DNA of 64,000 bases. It comes from a virus. A program made the translations under genes and the position numbers. The notes beneath the pieces are model-generated. The model was not told where the DNA came from and ran no database searches. It was given only the letters and a program-made list of their open reading frames with translations. Position 1 is the first letter of the stretch. Each line of letters opens with the position of its first letter. The stretch lies in the IMG/VR virus record IMGVR_UViG_3300025150_000004, positions 78,892 to 142,891 of that record, one strand, 5' to 3'. This document shows positions 16,796 to 25,054 of the stretch, piece by piece.

Positions 16796-16832
16796 TCGGG
16801 GCATGGGTAGAGTGTGGAGCTACGGAGGTTTG

Positions 16833-18143
16833 ATGATGACGACGTTCCAGACCGGCCAGTTTCAGCCCCTCAAGGCCATCTCGGAGTTCAACTTCGGTCC
16901 CCTGAACGGGATGACCATCAAGGATGGAACCGAGATGGACTTCGACGGCACCACCCTGCGGATGATGGGGAAGGAGTACGGCTGCCCGGAGTTCTCCATC
17001 GCCATCCGGGCCGGATTCGTGAAACCCCGCTCCGACACCACTTCGGCTCCGCCGAAGCCCACCTCCAACGTGGAGGTGAAGTCGGCGGTCGGCCACGGGG
17101 AGACCCGAGAGACGGTCCGTATGGGGGCCATCGTCGAGGAGGAGCAGGTCGTCGGCTCCGTGGCTGGGAGCAAGGGCCGCCGAGAAGCCGCCCAAGACGC
17201 CCGGTCCCAGCAGGTGACCAGCCAGCCGCAGGTGAGCCCGGACCCGGAGATCGAGGCAGCCCTGATGCCGCAGGCTCCTCCTCCACCTCGGCAACTGGAC
17301 CCCAGGGATGTGACCTCTGCCTCCGTCGCCGCCCAGTCCATGCAGGGGAATCGGCCCCGGACGGTGGAGGAGGCCGACGCCCTCAACGCCGCCGCCATCC
17401 AGGCGGAGTTGAACAAGCCCGTGAACACCAACTACATCAAGGGCGGCACCCGGCACGACAAGCTGGATGAAGATGATGCCGCCCCGACCGTCGGGGGTGG
17501 CAAGTTCAAGCTCGTGACCGCCGACGGGGCGAGCCAGGGGACCGTGGTGGGATCGGTGAAGTCCGGGGCGCACTCCGCCCGAGTCGGTCGGGACGGGGAG
17601 GCCGTGAAGACGGCCGCCTTGGACGTGACCAAGGCGACGGCCAGCACGGTCGAGTCGGGGCTTCAGGAGCAGAAGGTGGTCGAGGGGGTTCGAGGACTCG
17701 AAGCCAAGACCCGTGCGGTGCCGTCGGGCATCCAGAAGGTCGGGGCTCAGGTGATGCCGGAGCGCCCGGACATCATGGTCCAGCCCATCAAGACGGCCCA
17801 TTCCACGGTCATCACCGAGGGTGAAGACATCCGCACGGTCGGTGCCCAGGGGCAGACGGGGGATGTGTCAGAGAGCCGGTCCGGGGACGAACTGACCGAT
17901 CTCCTGCCCGACGCCATCGTGGCGTCTCCCCCCAAGCCGAAGAAGTCCAACCCCGACGACGAGGTCGCCGAGATCGTGGCGGGCTGGGACAAGCAGCGGC
18001 AGTGGAAAAAGCGGGTCAACGAGGCCGTGGAGTTCTACGCCGACTGGCCCGCCGCCCTGGACGCCATCTGCGCCATCGAGTCCGAGGCTGTGGTCAAGCA
18101 CATCCGCAGCCAGGTCGCCAAGAAGCAGGCCGAGAGCGCCTGA
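16833..18143 (+). CDS. hypothetical protein, largely low-complexity
   Basis: GGAGG RBS, long ORF with typical codon usage. Confidence 0.75.
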   Translation: MMTTFQTGQFQPLKAISEFNFGPLNGMTIKDGTEMDFDGTTLRMMGKEYGCPEFSIAIRAGFVKPRSDTTSAPPKPTSNVEVKSAVGHGETRETVRMGAIVEEEQVVGSVAGSKGRREAAQDARSQQVTSQPQVSPDPEIEAALMPQAPPPPRQLDPRDVTSASVAAQSMQGNRPRTVEEADALNAAAIQAELNKPVNTNYIKGGTRHDKLDEDDAAPTVGGGKFKLVTADGASQGTVVGSVKSGAHSARVGRDGEAVKTAALDVTKATASTVESGLQEQKVVEGVRGLEAKTRAVPSGIQKVGAQVMPERPDIMVQPIKTAHSTVITEGEDIRTVGAQGQTGDVSESRSGDELTDLLPDAIVASPPKPKKSNPDDEVAEIVAGWDKQRQWKKRVNEAVEFYADWPAALDAICAIESEAVVKHIRSQVAKKQAESA

Positions 18144-18151
18144 TCCCTGCC

Positions 18152-18181
18152 GGTATTCCGCCTATGGTCAGGCCACGGTAG
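18152..18181 (+). promoter_or_regulatory. putative late promoter
   Basis: GGT-attccgcc-TAT-N12-GTAG. Confidence 0.65.
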
Positions 18182-18212
18182 AGGTTTCGCACCTCCGCCG
18201 TGGAGGACCCGA

Positions 18213-18620
18213 GTGGCGACAGGATCCAACAAAAAAGCCAGTAGCGAGGCCGCTTGGGCGCTCATCATGGGGGGCGTGGCCTCAGCCCGTCTGGAAGCCC
18301 ATCGGCTGAAGCACCTGGTCAGCCGATGTGAGAAGCTCGTCGAGCACTCCACGCACCGGGAGCACCTGTACCAGGTCGCCGGGGACATCATCGTGGACAT
18401 GCCGGGCCGCCTTCGCAAGCTGGAGGTGGCCCTCGACCGGACGGCTCTGGCTCTGTCAGGGATGGGGGAGGAGTTCCTCTCCGCCAGGCTCCCGCTGTCC
18501 GAAAAGCAGCTTGTCGAAGAAGCCACCCAGCCGGGCTTTGGTGGCCACCGTCACCGGCATTCGGTCAAGACAGTCGCCCGGGAGTGGCTCCTCCGGCAGC
18601 TTCGAGAGGCTGGTAGATGA
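18213..18620 (+). CDS. hypothetical helical head-associated protein
   Basis: GGAGG RBS; behind late promoter; ends with SVKTVAREWL motif. Confidence 0.7.
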   Translation: MATGSNKKASSEAAWALIMGGVASARLEAHRLKHLVSRCEKLVEHSTHREHLYQVAGDIIVDMPGRLRKLEVALDRTALALSGMGEEFLSARLPLSEKQLVEEATQPGFGGHRHRHSVKTVAREWLLRQLREAGR

Positions 18621-21538
18621 CCCGGCAGGCCGACAAGTTCCCGGCCTTGGGGCTTCCATCGGAAGCGGGACCCTGTTTCGTAGTCCGGCGGATCGAGGAC
18701 AACGTCCGCTCCCCCTCAGTTCGGGACACCTTGGAGAGGAAGGTCGAGCGAGGCCAAGACCTGACGAATCCCGAGGCCCATGCGGTGTACGACCGGGAGG
18801 TCGAACGGGGTCCCGGCGGTCTCATCTCGAAGTTCGAGATCTCGTCTCACGCCCAGTACCGGATGGACCTGCGGGGCATCACGGTCCCCGAGGTCCGCTT
18901 CGTGTTCCAGCGGTTCCAGAAGGAACTCAATGACTGGAAGTCCCGACAGGATCCCGCCTACGACAGGGTGGCTCGGGCAATCCAGCGAGGGGAGCCCATC
19001 GAGTACGAGGACAAGCGGCTCCAGATGTTCATTGCCTTCACCATCCTCCAGAAGGGCTTGGCGAAGGTAATCACGGTCTACTGGAAGGGAATGCCAGACC
19101 CCAAGGCTCCAGGGGTCTGTGTGGTCCCGCACAGCCACCAGAAGCACGCACGGGACCCGGTGCAGGACTGGGGCACCCAGACATACACCAAGGACCCGAC
19201 GGACAACCCGGACAACCGGGAGAAGCAGCAGGTGCTACCGACCCCGCCGTGGAGTCGGAGCAAGCCGACGGGGAGGCCCCAGTACAACGTCCCAGGACCC
19301 AGTGGCACTGGGCCAGGCGAGAAGAACATCCACCAGTACCGTATGCGGACCAAGGGGGAGCCGGGGAAGGAGCACCCCCAACCACCGGCTCGAACCTCCC
19401 CTGTTCGGCGGCCGGAGGTGACCGGCGAGGACTGGGAGACGGCTGGTTGGTATGACCGGCTCGACCCACAGGTGGAGGAGCCTTTCCTCGAAGCCTCAAT
19501 GAAGGGCAAGCCGTATCCTGGGGCGAACCGGCAGAGGGAGCAGCGAGGCCCCGCTCGAAGGTATTACCGGCTTCGGTACAAGCGTCAGCGTCAGCAGTAC
19601 AAGCGGCGGATGAAGCTGTGGTATCGGCGCTATCGCAAGAACCCCAGGTATTTGAGGGACCAGGAGCGCCGGGACGATCACCCGAAGAGGTTCGAGCGCA
19701 AGCCCGGCGGCGGCTACGTGCGGAACCAGGACCGAAGCAAGGCTTGGCGGGACAAGCAGAAGAAGGCCAGCTTGGCAGAGCCCATCCCTGTGTTCTTCCT
19801 CCCGTTGCAGGAGTGGGGGTGGTTCGAGGGTGTCGGCGACGAAGACCTGATGGAGATCCGTGTTGATGGGAGCCTGTTCCAGCTTCCCATTGACCTGTTC
19901 TTCGACCAGGTGGAGGGCGACCCGGACATGGCGGATGCCCTCTTGGCCTACCTCGACGAGCACTACGAGTTCTCCGAGGGTGAAGGTGAGGACATGGCCA
20001 TCGACGACGCAATCGAGGCTCTCAAGAAGATCGCTTTCCAGGTGAAGCTCCGCTACCGGCCCGAGAAGCGCCAGCGGAAGACCCGTGGATTGAAGAAGTG
20101 GAAGCAGAAGATGCAGTACATGCGGAACCGGGCGAAGTCCAAGCGACAGACCCGGGTCCGGTACAAGCGTCTCAAGAGGCTCCCGGCCTTCAAGAAGCAG
20201 CAGCAGATCCGCCGCAAGCACCCAGAGAGGTTCAAGCGGCGGATGGCCGAGGTGCTCACCGCCCCGGACATCGCTTTCGTGGTGGGTGAGGAACTGGACC
20301 TGGGGTACGTCCACAGCGTCAGCCCCATGACCGGGCTCGTGACGTTCCATCGGACCTCGAACGGGGAGTACCTCTCCGACTCTCTGGAGTCCCTGGCAGT
20401 CGAGGATTTCATGGCGGCCGTCGGCTTCCTCTCGGAGGCCGACGAGGAGGCCATGTTCAAGCTCATCGACGTGGAACTGGGAGAGACGGCCTGGTCCGGT
20501 GAGTTGACCGAGGACGGTCTTCGTGGGTCAGCGGCCCTCATGGGCATCGACTGCGATTCCCCGAAGTTCCAAGACCTCTGCGAGAAGCTGGTCGGCAAGA
20601 CCCAGATCGCCGACATGGACCCAACCGAAGTCGCCCTGGTGAACTCGGTGGTCATCCATCAGACGGTCTATGACGACGATGCGATGGAGGTTGGAGAGTT
20701 CCCCGACCGGGACCGGGCAAAGGAGCCGACCGAGGCCGACTCTTTCATGATCGACCCCCAGGACGACGACTACATCTTCGGCAGGGTCAACCTCCCCGAG
20801 GACTACGCTCACCTGGTTCAGCGGACGGCTCGGCGGTGGGTCGCCCGGCAGGCGGAGATGCTCTATTGCAAGGAGCCCACCGACCAGGATTCGGACGACA
20901 CCTACGACCGTGGGGATGACAGGCTGGAGAAGAAGGTCCATCCGCCTCACTCCGAGCGCCTCGACCAGCCCTCCGTGGAGGAGAACCCGGGTTCGGCCAA
21001 GGTCATCCCGTGGAACCATCCCGACATGGTGAACAACCGGGCGGGGATGGTGCGCCTGGCGGCCCGCATCCACGAGATCGTGGAGAAGTGCGGGGAGGAT
21101 GTCTTGACCCGCTCAAGGGGGCTTCGTGTGAAGCTCCGCCGGGTGGATGCACGGAACGCTGTGTGGCTGTTCGACGTGCCCGGGAAGTCCGGCACCCATC
21201 GGGTGCGGATCAAGGCTGTTCGTCACGGCAACATTCGGGACGTGGGCAAGGCCCACGTCAAGGTGTCCTGCTCCTGCCCGTTCTGGCAGTGGCAGGGGCC
21301 GGAGCATCACGCCAAGACGGGGGATTACCTGTTCGGGAGCCCGAGGGGCACGGCTGCCAAGCCGGATGTGAAGGACCCCGGCGGGAAGCACGGGGCCTGC
21401 AAACATGTTTTGGCTTGCTTTGATTGGGTTATAGGCCACAACTGGCGGGTTCCCCCAAGACCACGGAAGCGGGCGTCAACAGATCGAGTAGTTGCACAGT
21501 TCCTTCGGCGGCAGCTTCAGGAGGCGTGGTGTGGCTAG
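18617..21538 (+). CDS. multidomain protein: DUF4258/RelE-like domain, two Arg/Lys/Tyr-rich tracts, C-terminal SWIM zinc finger
   Basis: ISSHAQYRMDLRGIT...KVITVYW; RRYYRLRYKRQRQQYKRR; VSCSCPFW...GACKH. Confidence 0.75.
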   Translation: MTRQADKFPALGLPSEAGPCFVVRRIEDNVRSPSVRDTLERKVERGQDLTNPEAHAVYDREVERGPGGLISKFEISSHAQYRMDLRGITVPEVRFVFQRFQKELNDWKSRQDPAYDRVARAIQRGEPIEYEDKRLQMFIAFTILQKGLAKVITVYWKGMPDPKAPGVCVVPHSHQKHARDPVQDWGTQTYTKDPTDNPDNREKQQVLPTPPWSRSKPTGRPQYNVPGPSGTGPGEKNIHQYRMRTKGEPGKEHPQPPARTSPVRRPEVTGEDWETAGWYDRLDPQVEEPFLEASMKGKPYPGANRQREQRGPARRYYRLRYKRQRQQYKRRMKLWYRRYRKNPRYLRDQERRDDHPKRFERKPGGGYVRNQDRSKAWRDKQKKASLAEPIPVFFLPLQEWGWFEGVGDEDLMEIRVDGSLFQLPIDLFFDQVEGDPDMADALLAYLDEHYEFSEGEGEDMAIDDAIEALKKIAFQVKLRYRPEKRQRKTRGLKKWKQKMQYMRNRAKSKRQTRVRYKRLKRLPAFKKQQQIRRKHPERFKRRMAEVLTAPDIAFVVGEELDLGYVHSVSPMTGLVTFHRTSNGEYLSDSLESLAVEDFMAAVGFLSEADEEAMFKLIDVELGETAWSGELTEDGLRGSAALMGIDCDSPKFQDLCEKLVGKTQIADMDPTEVALVNSVVIHQTVYDDDAMEVGEFPDRDRAKEPTEADSFMIDPQDDDYIFGRVNLPEDYAHLVQRTARRWVARQAEMLYCKEPTDQDSDDTYDRGDDRLEKKVHPPHSERLDQPSVEENPGSAKVIPWNHPDMVNNRAGMVRLAARIHEIVEKCGEDVLTRSRGLRVKLRRVDARNAVWLFDVPGKSGTHRVRIKAVRHGNIRDVGKAHVKVSCSCPFWQWQGPEHHAKTGDYLFGSPRGTAAKPDVKDPGGKHGACKHVLACFDWVIGHNWRVPPRPRKRASTDRVVAQFLRRQLQEAWCG

Positions 21539-22211
21539 GTCTGTTTGTATTTTGACCTGCCCTTGTTGCGGTCAAGGGTTCCTTCGGCGGCAGAGCATCG
21601 TAGTGGCCATGCAGAAGCGAAATCCCGACGTGGTATTGTCCTGCGGCAAGGCGTGTAGTGACATGCTGAAGCGGCGTCCTATCAACATCATGGACCGCAA
21701 AGCATTTGAGTACACCGTTGGCGTGGTACTTGGGGATGGATCGGTAGATCGGGCCGTGAGGGTGGCCGTTGGTCTTCAGGACGAAAATTTTGTGCCTATT
21801 TTGCGTCAGTTCTTCCAACGGGGAGTTGGGGTAGACCCTGGTGTGCTGCGGAATGAAGAAGCAAGATCTTTGTCTGTGAACCTGAGCTTCAAGGCGGCTG
21901 GCGACCTTTATCGGTCGTTCAAGCATGGCCCTTCATGGATACTGGAAGATGTGCGCCACCCGGCGATGGTGTTGGCCGGGTTGTGCGATACGGACGGGGG
22001 GTGGGAGAAAAAGAAAGGGCGGCGGGTCGCTTTTTGCATCACGCAGAAGAACAACGGGAATCTGGAGAAGTCCCTACCCCTATGGTATCAAGTCGGGCTG
22101 AACCCGTCGATTAGGTATTACGCTCCTGACCGGGCGGTACTTCGGATACCCTCTCCTCAACGTGAGCGGTTCCTTGATGTCGTCTCGCTCCAGCACCCCA
22201 GGAAAATCTGA
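21531..22211 (+). CDS. free-standing LAGLIDADG homing endonuclease with N-terminal zinc finger
   Basis: YTVGVVLGDG and LAGLCDTDG motifs; CPCCG...CGKAC; lower GC. Confidence 0.8.
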   Translation: MARSVCILTCPCCGQGFLRRQSIVVAMQKRNPDVVLSCGKACSDMLKRRPINIMDRKAFEYTVGVVLGDGSVDRAVRVAVGLQDENFVPILRQFFQRGVGVDPGVLRNEEARSLSVNLSFKAAGDLYRSFKHGPSWILEDVRHPAMVLAGLCDTDGGWEKKKGRRVAFCITQKNNGNLEKSLPLWYQVGLNPSIRYYAPDRAVLRIPSPQRERFLDVVSLQHPRKI

Positions 22212-22372
22212 TGGCCGTGTTCGACCACATCGTCACCAACAAGTGGTCGGTGCCTCGCTCGAAGCAGGGGGCCTCTCGGTATCTCCTCGATAGCCTGTCC
22301 TTGGGTGAGCCGGTGACGGCCGCCCGGGTGATCGCTGCCCGGTATCTTGGGCTGAAGGCAAGAGGAACGTGA
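22211..22372 (+). pseudogene. displaced original 3' end of gene 18617..21538 (53-aa ORF)
   Basis: MAVFDHIVTNKWSVP...RVIAARYL aligns with LACFDWVIGHNWRVP...RVVAQFL at the end of the upstream gene. Confidence 0.7.
22278..22308 (+). promoter_or_regulatory. putative late promoter
   Basis: GGT-atctcctc-GAT-N12/13-GTGA. Confidence 0.5.
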
Positions 22373-22752
22373 TGCCCAGCTACAGCTACCGTTGTCAGGA
22401 ATGCGAAGCCGTCTTCGATGCGACGGTGTCCCGGGCGGAGTGCGCCCAACCCCAGCCCTGCTCCTGCGGAGGTGACGCCAAGAGGGTCGTCGGGACCATC
22501 GGGTTCGTCCTCAAGGGGGACGGCTGGGTTGGCAAGAACCAGAAGATCAAGGGCCAGATGGCCCGGAAAAACGTCCGCCTCGACACCAAGTCCAGGGAGC
22601 GCCGCCATGATGCTCCCGGGGTCCGCCTCGTCCCCAACGTGGAGGGGGAGCGGGTGGATTCCTGGGACGAGGCGGCGAAGCTGGCCAAGTCGAAGGGCTA
22701 CGACAACACGTCGTTCAAGCAGATGGCCCAGCAGGAGAAGGCTGACCGATGA
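22372..22752 (+). CDS. FmdB-family zinc ribbon protein
   Basis: MPSYSYRCQEC...PCSCGG...FVLKGDGW. Confidence 0.8.
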   Translation: MPSYSYRCQECEAVFDATVSRAECAQPQPCSCGGDAKRVVGTIGFVLKGDGWVGKNQKIKGQMARKNVRLDTKSRERRHDAPGVRLVPNVEGERVDSWDEAAKLAKSKGYDNTSFKQMAQQEKADR

Positions 22753-23630
22753 GCGAGACCTTCGGCCCACTGGACCACTACCCCGGCATCCTCGAACGGG
22801 CACGGGAACTCATCGACCTCCAGGTCCAGCTTCGGGATCGACCGGGGGTCACCGGAGTTCGCCTGTGGGGCTCCAGGCATCCCCATCACCTGTATGGCCC
22901 ACGCACGAACTCGGGCATGGGGGGTGCCACCCCCAACGCCGACGCCAACCAGCGGGTTGTCCTCAACCGAGCCCGGCCGAACGAGATCACCTTGTCGAAC
23001 TCGTTCCGACGTGGCCGGTTCCGCTACGACGAGGTGACCCGAGGCATCTGCCGGTTCATCCAGAACGTGACCGACGTTGTGGGGCCACCCAGCATCTCGG
23101 ACGACCAGGTACTCTACGCCGCCATCCAGCAGGAGAGGGCCACACTTCCCGAAGTGACCGTGGATGGATTCACCGGCAGGGCGAACCGGATCAAGGGTGT
23201 CGTGGACCTGCTTGATCCCATTCTCGGCCCAATCCTGGTCATCCCCACGGTGGAGCAGTGGACCACCCTGCACGAGACGACGCAGATCATCCAGGCAGAC
23301 GCTCCCGCCTTGGGGATTGGGGCCGTGGCCATGGCCGTGGGTGGGACTCCAGCCCCGGACCCGGACCTCCAGATCCCCAACCCACTGCATTTCGTGCTGG
23401 CTCGGCCGACGACATCCATCACCATCAGGAACCTGGAGGCGGCCCCGGGAACGGGTCTTCTGGTCTCCCACGGACTGGGGCAGGCGGTCTACGAGATTCC
23501 GGCGGGGGAAGAGCGTACCTATTTCGGTGCGGTCAAGGAGGTCTGCCTCATGGCGAATGCCGCTGCGGCGCTCGCTTCGTTCGAGATCGAGGCGAACCTG
23601 AACCTGGGAGGGGCCGCAGGAGGACGCTGA
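22749..23630 (+). CDS. hypothetical virion protein
   Basis: Overlapping ATGA start in late operon. Confidence 0.7.
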   Translation: MSETFGPLDHYPGILERARELIDLQVQLRDRPGVTGVRLWGSRHPHHLYGPRTNSGMGGATPNADANQRVVLNRARPNEITLSNSFRRGRFRYDEVTRGICRFIQNVTDVVGPPSISDDQVLYAAIQQERATLPEVTVDGFTGRANRIKGVVDLLDPILGPILVIPTVEQWTTLHETTQIIQADAPALGIGAVAMAVGGTPAPDPDLQIPNPLHFVLARPTTSITIRNLEAAPGTGLLVSHGLGQAVYEIPAGEERTYFGAVKEVCLMANAAAALASFEIEANLNLGGAAGGR

Positions 23631-23639
23631 GCCTCGATT

Positions 23640-23669
23640 GGTAATCCGCCTATAGGCGACAACAAGTAG
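23640..23669 (+). promoter_or_regulatory. putative late promoter
   Basis: GGT-aatccgcc-TAT-N12-GTAG. Confidence 0.7.
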
Positions 23670-23716
23670 ACGAGGCCGGTCCTCGTCGAAGGTACTGGAA
23701 CCGGAGAGCAACCACC

Positions 23717-25054
23717 ATGCCGTACATCTGCCTTGCACGGAACGACATCCCCGACGGGACTCTTCAGGTGCTCGACCTGGTTCCGAACACGTCCCTTCGG
23801 AACCAGAGCATCGACCCGCCGGGCCAGACCCGCTACCTCAAGCGCACCCGCCGGGTGAACGTCGGTCTCGACGCCAACACCGGCGTGGTGACCCGAGGCG
23901 GTGGTGTCCAGGGATCGGCCAACTTCCTCACGGGCCTCGAAGCCTACCTCCTCGACCGGGTCGAGCCCGGCTCCCTTCAGGTGGCCACGGGCACCATCGT
24001 GATGGCGGCCCAGCCCAACGTCGGCGACCGGGTGGTCATCAAGGGCATCATCTTCGAGTTCCAGGCTGGGGCCAACCCGGTCAACTGGAACGCCCCCCAG
24101 GATGGGACGGATGGCACCCCGTTCCTCGTCGGTGCTGGTGCCAGTGCGAACGATGCCGCCGCCAACCTGACGCTCGCCATCAACGATGTCGGCGCTGTGC
24201 AGGCGGCCATCCTCGCTGCGGCTCCTGCGAACACGACGGCAACGGCCACCAACCCCGCCGCTCCGTCCCCCAACGTGGTCCTATCGGCCGAGGACAACCT
24301 CGGTGCCCCGCTCCTGGGCCGGGCCGGTGACCTCACCGTCGTGGTGACCGTGGGCGGTGCCCGGATCACCCAGCCAGCGGCGGGCCGGATGGGGCGTACC
24401 GACGAGGCGTGGACCGAGGCGACCCTGGTCGCCCGTGCTGGCAACCTCCAGGGGGCCTGCGATGCCGGGCTGCCCCTCACACTCGCAGTGGTCAACGGTG
24501 GTGCCCATCTCGGGGCCGTCGGTGCGGATCTCACGGGAGCAGCGGCGACATCGGCTTCGACCGGGACCCTTCTGCAACTCCTGAGCATCCTCGCTGGGCG
24601 GGAGTATCGGATCGCCCCGGGTGCCCTGAAGTTCACGGCTGCGGCGGCCCCGGACTCGATCCACCTGTGGGACGCCACCCAGCGTGGTGCGTTCACCCAG
24701 GCCGTGTCGGTCTTCGACAGCCAGATGCTCAACGGCGAGATCCGGCCGAACGCCCGCTTCGTGAAGCGCCCGAACATCTCCGCTCGGTCGCAGTTCAACA
24801 ACGTGACCGGCGGGGACGCCGTGAACCGGGAACTCGGTGATGTCCGCTACAACGTGGCGGGTGAGTCTCTCGATGCCTCTCTGGACAGCGGGACGCTGGC
24901 CCAGATGGTGGCGGCGACCAACACCCTGTTCCCCGACAACCCCTTCTCGGCGTTCAAGAACGGGGCGCATCCCTCTCAGCCGGGGCCGCAGACGGCCGAG
25001 GTCAACAACGTCCGGCTGGTCACCGTCTACGCTGACGACGGCAGCGTGCTCTGA
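23717..25054 (+). CDS. structural protein, paralog 1 of 3
   Basis: N-term RNDIPDG.LQVLDL.PNTS.RN..DPPGQ; C-term VYADDGSVL; A/G/T/N-rich. Confidence 0.75.
   Translation: MPYICLARNDIPDGTLQVLDLVPNTSLRNQSIDPPGQTRYLKRTRRVNVGLDANTGVVTRGGGVQGSANFLTGLEAYLLDRVEPGSLQVATGTIVMAAQPNVGDRVVIKGIIFEFQAGANPVNWNAPQDGTDGTPFLVGAGASANDAAANLTLAINDVGAVQAAILAAAPANTTATATNPAAPSPNVVLSAEDNLGAPLLGRAGDLTVVVTVGGARITQPAAGRMGRTDEAWTEATLVARAGNLQGACDAGLPLTLAVVNGGAHLGAVGADLTGAAATSASTGTLLQLLSILAGREYRIAPGALKFTAAAAPDSIHLWDATQRGAFTQAVSVFDSQMLNGEIRPNARFVKRPNISARSQFNNVTGGDAVNRELGDVRYNVAGESLDASLDSGTLAQMVAATNTLFPDNPFSAFKNGAHPSQPGPQTAEVNNVRLVTVYADDGSVL

Follow-up and report, generated by a model that had tools for sequence, protein, structure and literature searches.

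A putative mobile cassette of a LAGLIDADG endonuclease gene and a replacement 3′ end in a huge-phage SWIM gene

The host gene, its inserted 3′ end and the endonuclease gene

A 64,000-nucleotide stretch of viral DNA (IMG/VR record IMGVR_UViG_3300025150_000004, positions 78,892 to 142,891) was analyzed and is referred to as the window, with position 1 as its first letter. It carries a gene for a 973-amino acid (aa) protein with a SWIM-like CSC...CKH signature near its end, followed by a LAGLIDADG endonuclease gene, a short open reading frame (ORF) and a zinc-ribbon gene. The free-standing endonuclease gene, together with a replacement 3′ end for the SWIM gene, very probably forms a mobile cassette. 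The features of the locus are as follows, with GC3 denoting the G+C fraction at third codon positions.

18617..21412, + strand: core of the 973-aa gene, of host origin, through the Leu codon that follows the SWIM-type C-K-H
21413..21538, + strand: inserted replacement 3′ end, encoding ACFDWVIGHNWRVPPRPRKRASTDRVVAQFLRRQLQEAWCG and then a stop; in frame with the host core; GC3 0.51
21519..21524, + strand: AGGAGG ribosome-binding site of the endonuclease, read from the sequence, 6 nt 5′ of GTG 21531
21531..22211, + strand: free-standing LAGLIDADG endonuclease gene, 226 aa (Pfam, PHROG, AlphaFold2 model, Foldseek)
22211..22372, + strand: stranded native 3′ end of the host gene, 53 codons, encoding MAVFDHIVTNKWSVPRSKQGASRYLLDSLSLGEPVTAARVIAARYLGLKARGT in the host gene's frame
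22369..22752, + strand: Zn_ribbon_8 gene, start GTG 22369 or ATG 22372 (Pfam PF09723, E 1.5e-8)

The host gene (18617-21538) reads ...GGKHGACKH, followed by VLACFDWVIGHNWRVPPRPRKRASTDRVVAQFLRRQLQEAWCG and the stop codon TAG at 21536-21538, and the C-terminal end of its product is ...RVVAQFLRRQLQEAWCG. The C-K-H codons TGC AAA CAT are located at 21398-21406. Directly after TGC (21398), the codon style shifts to AAA CAT GTT TTG GCT TGC TTT GAT (21401-21424), and then TGG GTT ATA. The GC3 over 21401-21535 is 0.51 versus 0.85 in the remainder of the host gene, and this value undercuts all 883 45-codon windows of the host part, for which the minimum is 0.689. The overall GC content is 0.52-0.60 within 21380-22220 versus 0.62-0.69 in the flanks. 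The last four codons of the core (21401-21412) already show A/T-ending synonymous changes, which may represent a co-conversion tract. GCT TGC TTT, the cassette signature, opens the inserted tail in place of the GCG GTG TTC or CTG of native alleles, and the central RYLxDSLxLGE block is missing from this tail. In the family alignment, it groups with the tails found next to the endonuclease in L027, L020, and L029. Relatives of the SWIM gene were taken from a large protein collection, and 120 were listed. The Pfam SWIM domain (PF04434) was matched in three of these 120, and the host protein of the window gave no Pfam match at E values up to 0.1.

The endonuclease ORF is open from 21492 and ends with the stop codon TGA at 22209-22211. 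Its start is likely GTG 21531, which overlaps the host stop. The AGGAGG lies inside the final codons of the inserted tail, the frame differs from that of the host gene, and the overlap with the tail's stop is 8 nt. The protein matches Pfam LAGLIDADG_3 (E 1.3e-5, 25.8 bits, cut-off 22.5) and PHROG 11023, which is annotated as LAGLIDADG homing endonuclease (E 8e-4). Two LAGLIDADG motifs, VGVVLGDGSV and LAGLCDTDGGW, ending in acidic residues, were identified, and N-terminal to both is a CxxC...CxxxC zinc finger; the conserved core stops at HPRK. Residues G150, C152, D153, T154, D155, and G156 are invariant in seven endonuclease homologues, which are 44-73% identical and free of frameshifts, and the first motif is kept in every homologue covering that region.

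AlphaFold2 was used to predict the structure of the endonuclease from an alignment of the seven homologues, giving a predicted local distance difference test score (pLDDT) of 91.1 and a predicted template modeling score (pTM) of 0.77. The top Foldseek matches of the model were I-WcaI, I-Tsp061I, I-SceI, and I-DmoI (E 1e-9 to 1e-7). The predicted structure contains the alpha-beta-beta-alpha-beta-beta-alpha fold twice and is of the I-WcaI/I-SceI type. A sequence-profile search of the PDB with the endonuclease returned weak matches only (zinc-finger proteins, and I-Tsp061I at E 0.23). With a pLDDT 91 model carrying the LAGLIDADG fold and with motif residues invariant in seven homologues, the endonuclease looks intact. 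No second copy of this endonuclease family was found in the 142.9-kb contig at E values up to 0.01.

The endonuclease gene is free-standing, has its own translation signals, and is neither intron- nor intein-borne. An Rfam search over 20800-22900 found no self-splicing RNA at E values up to 1. An intron or intein is ruled out by this result, by the host gene's own stop, and by the position of the endonuclease in another frame.

A perfect 16-nt direct repeat, GTTCCTTCGGCGGCAG, is present at 21499-21514 and 21578-21593, 79 nt apart. The repeat encodes FLRRQ twice, once within AQFLRRQL of the inserted tail and once within GFLRRQS at the N-terminus of the endonuclease. The chance expectation for such a 16-nt repeat was roughly estimated by us as about 1e-4 in a 1.15-kb stretch. 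FLRRQ is missing at both places in the L027 and L020 proteins.

The stranded ORF (hereafter the leftover) starts with ATG 22211, the A of which also ends the endonuclease stop (TGATG), and AGGA is located 7 nt upstream. The GC3 of the leftover is 0.79, which is host-like. Native homology begins at GCC GTG TTC (22214), and the ORF aligns with the native tails of the L012/L005/P0010-13 type. No other copy of it was found in the 142.9-kb contig. The Zn_ribbon_8 gene, the conserved right-hand neighbor, begins where the leftover ends.

A preliminary description of this DNA, made from the sequence alone, had anticipated much of this layout. It reported a codon switch by the SWIM motif, which is confirmed and begins at AAA CAT 21401; a LAGLIDADG gene behind the host gene, which is the gene at 21531-22211 with the Pfam LAGLIDADG_3 match; and an ORF in high-GC codons directly after the endonuclease stop, which is the leftover at 22211-22372. 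The gene end was given as RVVAQFL. This motif is present, but the gene runs 10 residues further. The two tails were also said to align residue for residue, which is overstated: the BLASTP alignment is limited to the first 23 residues, with 39% identity (E 6e-5), and the terminal RV.A..(F/Y)L motifs of both tails align in the family alignment across a gap of about 17 residues. The gap arises because the inserted tail is without the central RYLxDSLxLGE block.

Element-free relatives and the same locus in other lineages

The IMG/VR viral contig that holds the window is 142.9 kb and is rated by CheckV as about 27% complete, which implies a huge phage. In DNA and protein searches of a phage GenBank collection, the sole relative was LR745208.1, an uncultured, unannotated entry of 485 kb. 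Relatives of the endonuclease were drawn from the large protein collection; a pattern-based scan of IMG/VR for the endonuclease gave no matches.

The SWIM gene runs directly into the zinc-ribbon gene, without endonuclease or small ORF, in 17 IMG/VR loci and in LR745208.1. The loci L031, L035, and L040 are likewise element-free, so that the DNA of 21 element-free loci was examined in total. The closest element-free relative is L031/P0010; its gene order is that of the window, and the zinc-ribbon proteins of the two are 80% identical. In L031, CKHVL (followed by AVFDHI...) is joined directly to AVFDHITRHKWSVP...LSLGEPVSAARVVAARYLVLKARGN, the sequence of the leftover; the end region of L031/P0010 reads ...AACKHVLAVFDHITRHKWSVPPMGKQGARFLVDSLSLGEPVSAARVVAARYLVLKARGN. 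The DNA identity to the native tail of L031 is 79.2% for the leftover (159 nt) and 53% for the inserted tail, and the upstream 189 nt of the host core is 75% identical to L031. The native tail retained downstream in the window matches P0011-13 as well as L031/P0010. Among the 120 listed relatives, CKHVLAV was found in 76, and Val occupies the position of the window's Cys in 99.

These relatives bear on two expectations of the preliminary description. It predicted that CKH(V/I)x would be joined directly to AVFDHIV in element-free relatives, and L031 reads in this way. It also considered that element-free homologs might end like the inserted tail and carry a separate 22211 ORF; none of the 21 loci has the small ORF. 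Its central claim, a replacement 3′ end without intron or intein, is supported by the empty sites, by the tail identity of L031, and by the recurrence of the arrangement in other lineages.

Related endonucleases occupy the same locus in eight other phage lineages. All endonuclease relatives whose surroundings were read (40-73% identity) are located downstream of the SWIM gene and, except for L039, directly upstream of the Zn_ribbon_8 gene. In L027/L028/L036, the endonuclease is 73% identical, the tail is CKHVLACFDWIIKNNWKMP...RVARRFLQKQAGWHV, and a 56-codon leftover starts with MAVFDWVQARK.... In L020, the endonuclease is 58% identical, the tail is CKHVLACFAWVLSHDWQIP..., and a 67-codon leftover, MSGKHVLAVLDFVTSQKWDVP..., resembles the native tail of L006. 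The right junction of L020 lies five codons further upstream, so that a 17-nt direct repeat flanks the cassette.

The locus L029, with an endonuclease 58% identical, is a close relative of the empty locus L013, and their flanks are 83-91% identical in DNA. The homology of this empty and occupied pair stops exactly after GTT GTT GCT. The leftover of L029 lacks a start codon and is both shorter and frameshifted in its proximal part (46% identity), whereas its distal 90 nt is 91% identical to L013. No leftover is present in L021-L026/L037, L030, and L039. The locus L038 belongs to a more distant endonuclease clade and has a replaced tail and an open leftover of a further native type, AALNLARKYRF..., without a start codon. 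Within L038:2531-2640, the frame that leads from the endonuclease stop to the leftover VAALNLARKYRF... reads ...PSRVARRF, which resembles the tail end RVARRFL and could be a nested relic of a previous insertion.

In L032-L034 (P0037, 29 contigs), the endonuclease is absent, and a cassette-type tail of low GC content continues in frame into a native-type tail. The GC content of the first tail in L032 is 0.38-0.48 versus 0.55-0.60. These fused tails look like the scar of an endonuclease deletion. The 106-residue tail at L032:4405-4725 consists of LACFDWIQTNKWRIP...SRYLRHAWQG and the native-type ..NVLAVLGNVRAFKIP...RVAARYLERMED. The stages found at this locus are as follows.

Leftover intact, with start codon: window, L027, L020
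Leftover without start codon: L029 (frameshifted), L038 (open)
No leftover: L021/L037, L030, L039
Endonuclease gone, cassette tail and native tail fused in frame: L032

The same short LAC-type tail was found in four other endonuclease-bearing lineages, among them L027, L020, and L029, and the leftovers of these three each match a different native tail type. The codons GCT TGY (Ala-Cys) are common to the window, L027, L020, L021, and L029, and native alleles are mostly GCN GTN. The next codon is TTT in four of these five loci and CTC in L029. Cys is found at the signature position in 6 of 7 loci with the endonuclease versus 4 of 22 without it (Fisher p 0.003). In the loci with called genes (window, L027, L020, and L021), the endonuclease start overlaps the tail end by 4-8 nt, which ties the tail and the endonuclease into one unit. 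These data support the finding that the tail travels with the endonuclease.

Phylogenetic trees of the endonuclease and of the zinc-ribbon gene were compared. Endonuclease presence is scattered on the zinc-ribbon tree, with 5 changes, at least 3 of which are forced by well-supported branches. The window and L027 are joined in the endonuclease tree (support 97/97), and the zinc-ribbon gene rejects this clade in the approximately unbiased test (p-AU 0.004), a result weakened because the pair was picked after the trees were seen. The identity between the window and L027 is 73% for the endonuclease and 42% for the zinc-ribbon protein. The tree of the 150 residues preceding C-K-H had too poor a resolution to place the window. 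The patchy distribution and the tree incongruence suggest that the cassette is mobile.

An assembly chimera was considered and ruled out by identical proteins on 3 contigs and by the recurrence of the L021-type and L027-type layouts in independent assemblies from several samples and sources. The gene order is kept among the window (16803-25054), L031, L021, L032, and L035, with relatives 40-80% identical. Genes for proteins of about 440 aa and about 130 aa come first, the SWIM and zinc-ribbon genes follow, and genes for proteins of about 270-290 aa and about 440 aa come last. Apart from the zinc ribbon, neither these neighbors nor the 973-aa host gene or the leftover could be assigned a function with Pfam or PHROGs. 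The promoter and terminator scan found nothing exceeding the shuffled expectation. The 528,282-bp contig Ga0222640_1000001 carries L037 with the L021-type layout, in which the endonuclease is directly 5′ of the zinc-ribbon gene without a leftover. This contig is probably a near-complete huge-phage genome and would be a useful reference for the phage group of the window.

Proposed mechanism and alternative explanations

The proposed mechanism starts from the anatomy of the locus, its foreign composition, the homologies, the empty sites, the recurrence at one locus, the incongruent phylogeny, and the fold and motifs of the endonuclease. The minimal cassette is about 21413-22213, which is 801 bp and a multiple of three. 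Its first part is a short foreign version of the host's C-terminal tail, in frame with the host core. Its second part is the endonuclease gene, the ribosome-binding site and start codon of which lie within the last codons of the tail.

During co-infection, the endonuclease would cut element-free genomes in or near GCC TGC AAG CAC GTN CTG | GCG GTG TTC GAC, a highly conserved sequence that encodes A-C-K-H-V-L-A-V-F-D. The break would be repaired from the cassette-bearing genome, and the tail and the endonuclease would be copied. The SWIM-coding region would serve as the left homology arm, and the native tail, or the leftover, plus the zinc-ribbon gene would serve as the right arm, of which the Zn_ribbon_8 gene is likely the distal part. 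The copied tail would restore a complete frame, so that the host gene would remain whole without an intron or intein. The changed tail (GCT TGY TTT, Val to Cys, and the divergence downstream) would remove the target, and the carrier would thereby become immune. The recipient's own tail would be stranded behind the endonuclease and would then decay or be deleted, and the endonuclease itself would be lost later in some cases.

The foreign DNA begins on its left side at one and the same codon in all five lineages that were compared. On the right, the boundary codon is shared by the window and L027. L021, which has no leftover, also carries the GCT TGT TTT signature at this codon. The putative target is placed at A-C-K-H-V-L-A-V on the basis of these shared boundary codons and the L021 signature.

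Several observations weigh against this mechanism. The leftover of L020 keeps the whole KHVLAVLDF coding sequence, so that a target centered on the L|A junction would persist in this carrier. Either the site reaches further upstream, where the zinc finger may read it, or the enzyme of L020 differs, or the cut is elsewhere. L038, which carries an endonuclease, keeps Val at the signature position. Endonuclease-free Ala-Cys junction alleles, with the signature A-C(F/L), exist in L035, L040, and L015, so that this change is not exclusive to the cassette; these alleles may be naturally resistant, a source of the cassette tail, or the product of a precise endonuclease loss. The ratio of nonsynonymous to synonymous substitution rates (dN/dS) of the leftover against L031 (0.72, 52 codons) is not clearly separate from that of five native tail pairs (0.16-0.59). 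The post hoc choice of the clade in the p-AU test counts here as well. All relatives are metagenomic contigs, without a host or phage isolate, and cleavage activity, the exact cut site, immunity, present-day mobility, and homing are inferred from sequence.

Among the endonuclease-free Ala-Cys alleles, L035:3001-6036 carries LACFNWVTTHQWRVP in high-GC codons and then a long native-type tail. L040:2501-4411 carries a short L021-like tail with Ala-Cys at the junction.

The leftover may be either silent junk or a translated small peptide. Its translation is possible, since two independent junction types place its ATG over the endonuclease stop and AGGA is located 7 nt upstream. Its dN/dS of 0.72, compared with 0.22-0.26 in the flanking genes, suggests relaxed constraint. 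The synonymous rate dS between the window (22214-22369) and L031 is 0.31 in the leftover/tail versus 0.60-1.06 in the flanking genes; this low value could come from DNA or RNA constraint 5′ of the zinc-ribbon gene, from recent exchange, or from small-sample noise.

The alternative explanations differ mainly in what they make of the two tails and of the enzyme. The one that comes closest, although still unlikely, is that the element arose by homing and is now a fossil, its endonuclease inactive or kept for another role such as competition in co-infection. It is general knowledge, restated in PMC13619312, that homing endonuclease genes commonly decay after fixation, and no identical or nearly identical cassette turned up in another genomic background, where the endonuclease that comes nearest is 73% identical. 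The intact ORF, the conservation of both catalytic motifs, the confident fold, and the almost undecayed leftover point the other way, as does the tree incongruence, which indicates transfers between lineages. Somewhat more doubtful is the idea that the stranded tail is a working part of the cassette or of the phage. It could act as a portable right homology arm, which would let the cassette enter phages with too-diverged tails and would be regenerated from the recipient in each homing event. It could also be a translationally coupled micro-protein of 53 aa, supplying the RYLxDSLxLGE block that the inserted tail is missing. If this were true, the arrangement would be a hybrid between gene replacement and gene fission.

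Gene fission proper, in which the 53-codon ORF would be a still-needed piece of the host protein acting in trans, like the nrdA halves that mobE separates in phage Aeh1, and the inserted tail would be incidental, is improbable. The frame of the leftover is open to the native stop and keeps the RYLxDSLxLGE and RVxARYL motifs, its start codon, behind the AGGA, runs into the endonuclease stop (as TGATG in the window and in L027, and as ATGA in L020), and its 79% DNA identity to L031 is not below that of the flanking genes. However, the hybrid gene already has a homologous tail, the leftover is frameshifted and without a start codon in L029 and absent in L021/L037, L030, and L039, and most of the tail is naturally missing in the element-free L001, L014, L015, P0024, and P0123-126. 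The difference in dN/dS between the leftover and its flanks also speaks against fission. An endonuclease-split gene of the Aeh1 nrdA type, with two non-redundant parts both kept, was rejected, with redundant tails in the window and a downstream piece that is frameshifted or absent in other carriers. A tandem duplication, by which the host 3′ end would have been duplicated and diverged locally before the endonuclease landed between the copies, with no foreign tail, is very improbable. L032 to L034, with two tandem tails and no endonuclease, are readable as its intermediate. The first tail is foreign in composition, however, both in the window (GC3 0.51 versus 0.85) and in L032 (GC 0.38-0.48 versus 0.55-0.60). 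It is closer to the endonuclease-adjacent tails of other lineages than to the tail of its own lineage, and the start signals of the endonuclease are embedded in the tail in every lineage.

Comparison with known systems

In fungal mitochondria, the Glomus atp6, atp9, cox2, and nad3 hybrids consist of an inserted C-terminus, an endonuclease ORF, and the native C-terminus, and the identity to relatives is 91-98% for the native versus 64-81% for the inserted C-terminus (PMC3630166). An atp6 hybrid of Allomyces macrogynus is cited there (Paquin, Laforest and Lang 1994, in PMC3630166). Partial C-terminal duplications with LAGLIDADG or GIY-YIG ORFs between the copies are found in Endoconidiophora cob and atp6 (PMC6279837). 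The window has the same organization as these mobile ORF (mORF) hybrids, with a foreign C-terminal segment in phase with the core and an endonuclease ORF directly behind it. The displaced native end is closer to relatives than the inserted end (79% versus 53%). Occurrence is patchy in both systems, and the inserted tail is probably of horizontal origin. The likeness to fungal mitochondrial 3′ replacement proposed in the preliminary description is thus borne out by an architecture that matches the Allomyces atp6 and Glomus hybrids. With its in-phase diverged tail, its retained native tail, and 21 empty-site relatives, the host gene has the architecture of an mORF-type C-terminal replacement hybrid. 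Unlike the fungal cases, the host is a huge bacteriophage, the host gene is not respiratory, the endonuclease carries an N-terminal zinc finger, and a stage series is present across about ten lineages at one locus. The endonucleases of the Glomus atp6 and nad3 hybrids are in phase with the host gene, whereas that of the window has a separate frame, its own Shine-Dalgarno sequence, and an 8-nt overlap.

Free-standing endonucleases of T4-like phages, such as mobE in Aeh1 nrdA, mobA in T4 gene 39/60, and seg in phage 25 gene 43 (PMC2988022), are also comparable. Similarly to these, the endonuclease of the window is free-standing in a phage, without intron or intein, and tied to a conserved gene, and it would be expected to spread via double-strand-break repair at co-infection with co-conversion of the flanking DNA. 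In contrast to the window, the host gene in T4-like phages is divided and its two polypeptides assemble again, with no duplicated or replacement segment described, and the enzymes are HNH or GIY-YIG, LAGLIDADG being unmentioned in PMC2988022. The enzyme of the window shares the two-domain fold of the structurally solved, monomeric double-motif LAGLIDADG endonucleases I-WcaI (6x1j), I-Tsp061I (2dch), I-SceI (1r7m), and I-DmoI (2vs7), with template modeling (TM) scores of 0.55-0.62. The identity to these is 14-18%, and the window enzyme is extended at its N-terminus by a zinc-finger module of about 50 residues. The four known enzymes are intron- or intein-encoded, whereas that of the window is free-standing. 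A text search of PMC10448857, on endonuclease genes at phage recombination boundaries, found no such arrangement, and no phage example was found in the literature searched, with subscription journals mostly outside its reach.

These comparisons support the conclusion that a known architecture, that of fungal mitochondria, is found here in a new type of genome and with an unusually complete natural stage series. The solution in which an endonuclease brings its own gene ending is not confined to fungal mitochondria. Putatively selfish endonucleases of huge phages use the same solution, which lets the endonuclease sit within a coding sequence without an intron or intein. About ten natural lineages present, at one locus, the empty site, fresh insertion, the decaying leftover, loss of the leftover, and the scar of endonuclease loss. 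Together with the L013/L029 pair, these stages allow the homing cycle, the co-conversion tracts, and the way in which hybrid genes arise to be read directly and tested. In annotation, a short orphan ORF that follows an endonuclease gene in a phage genome may be a displaced gene end, and the gene upstream may be a chimera.

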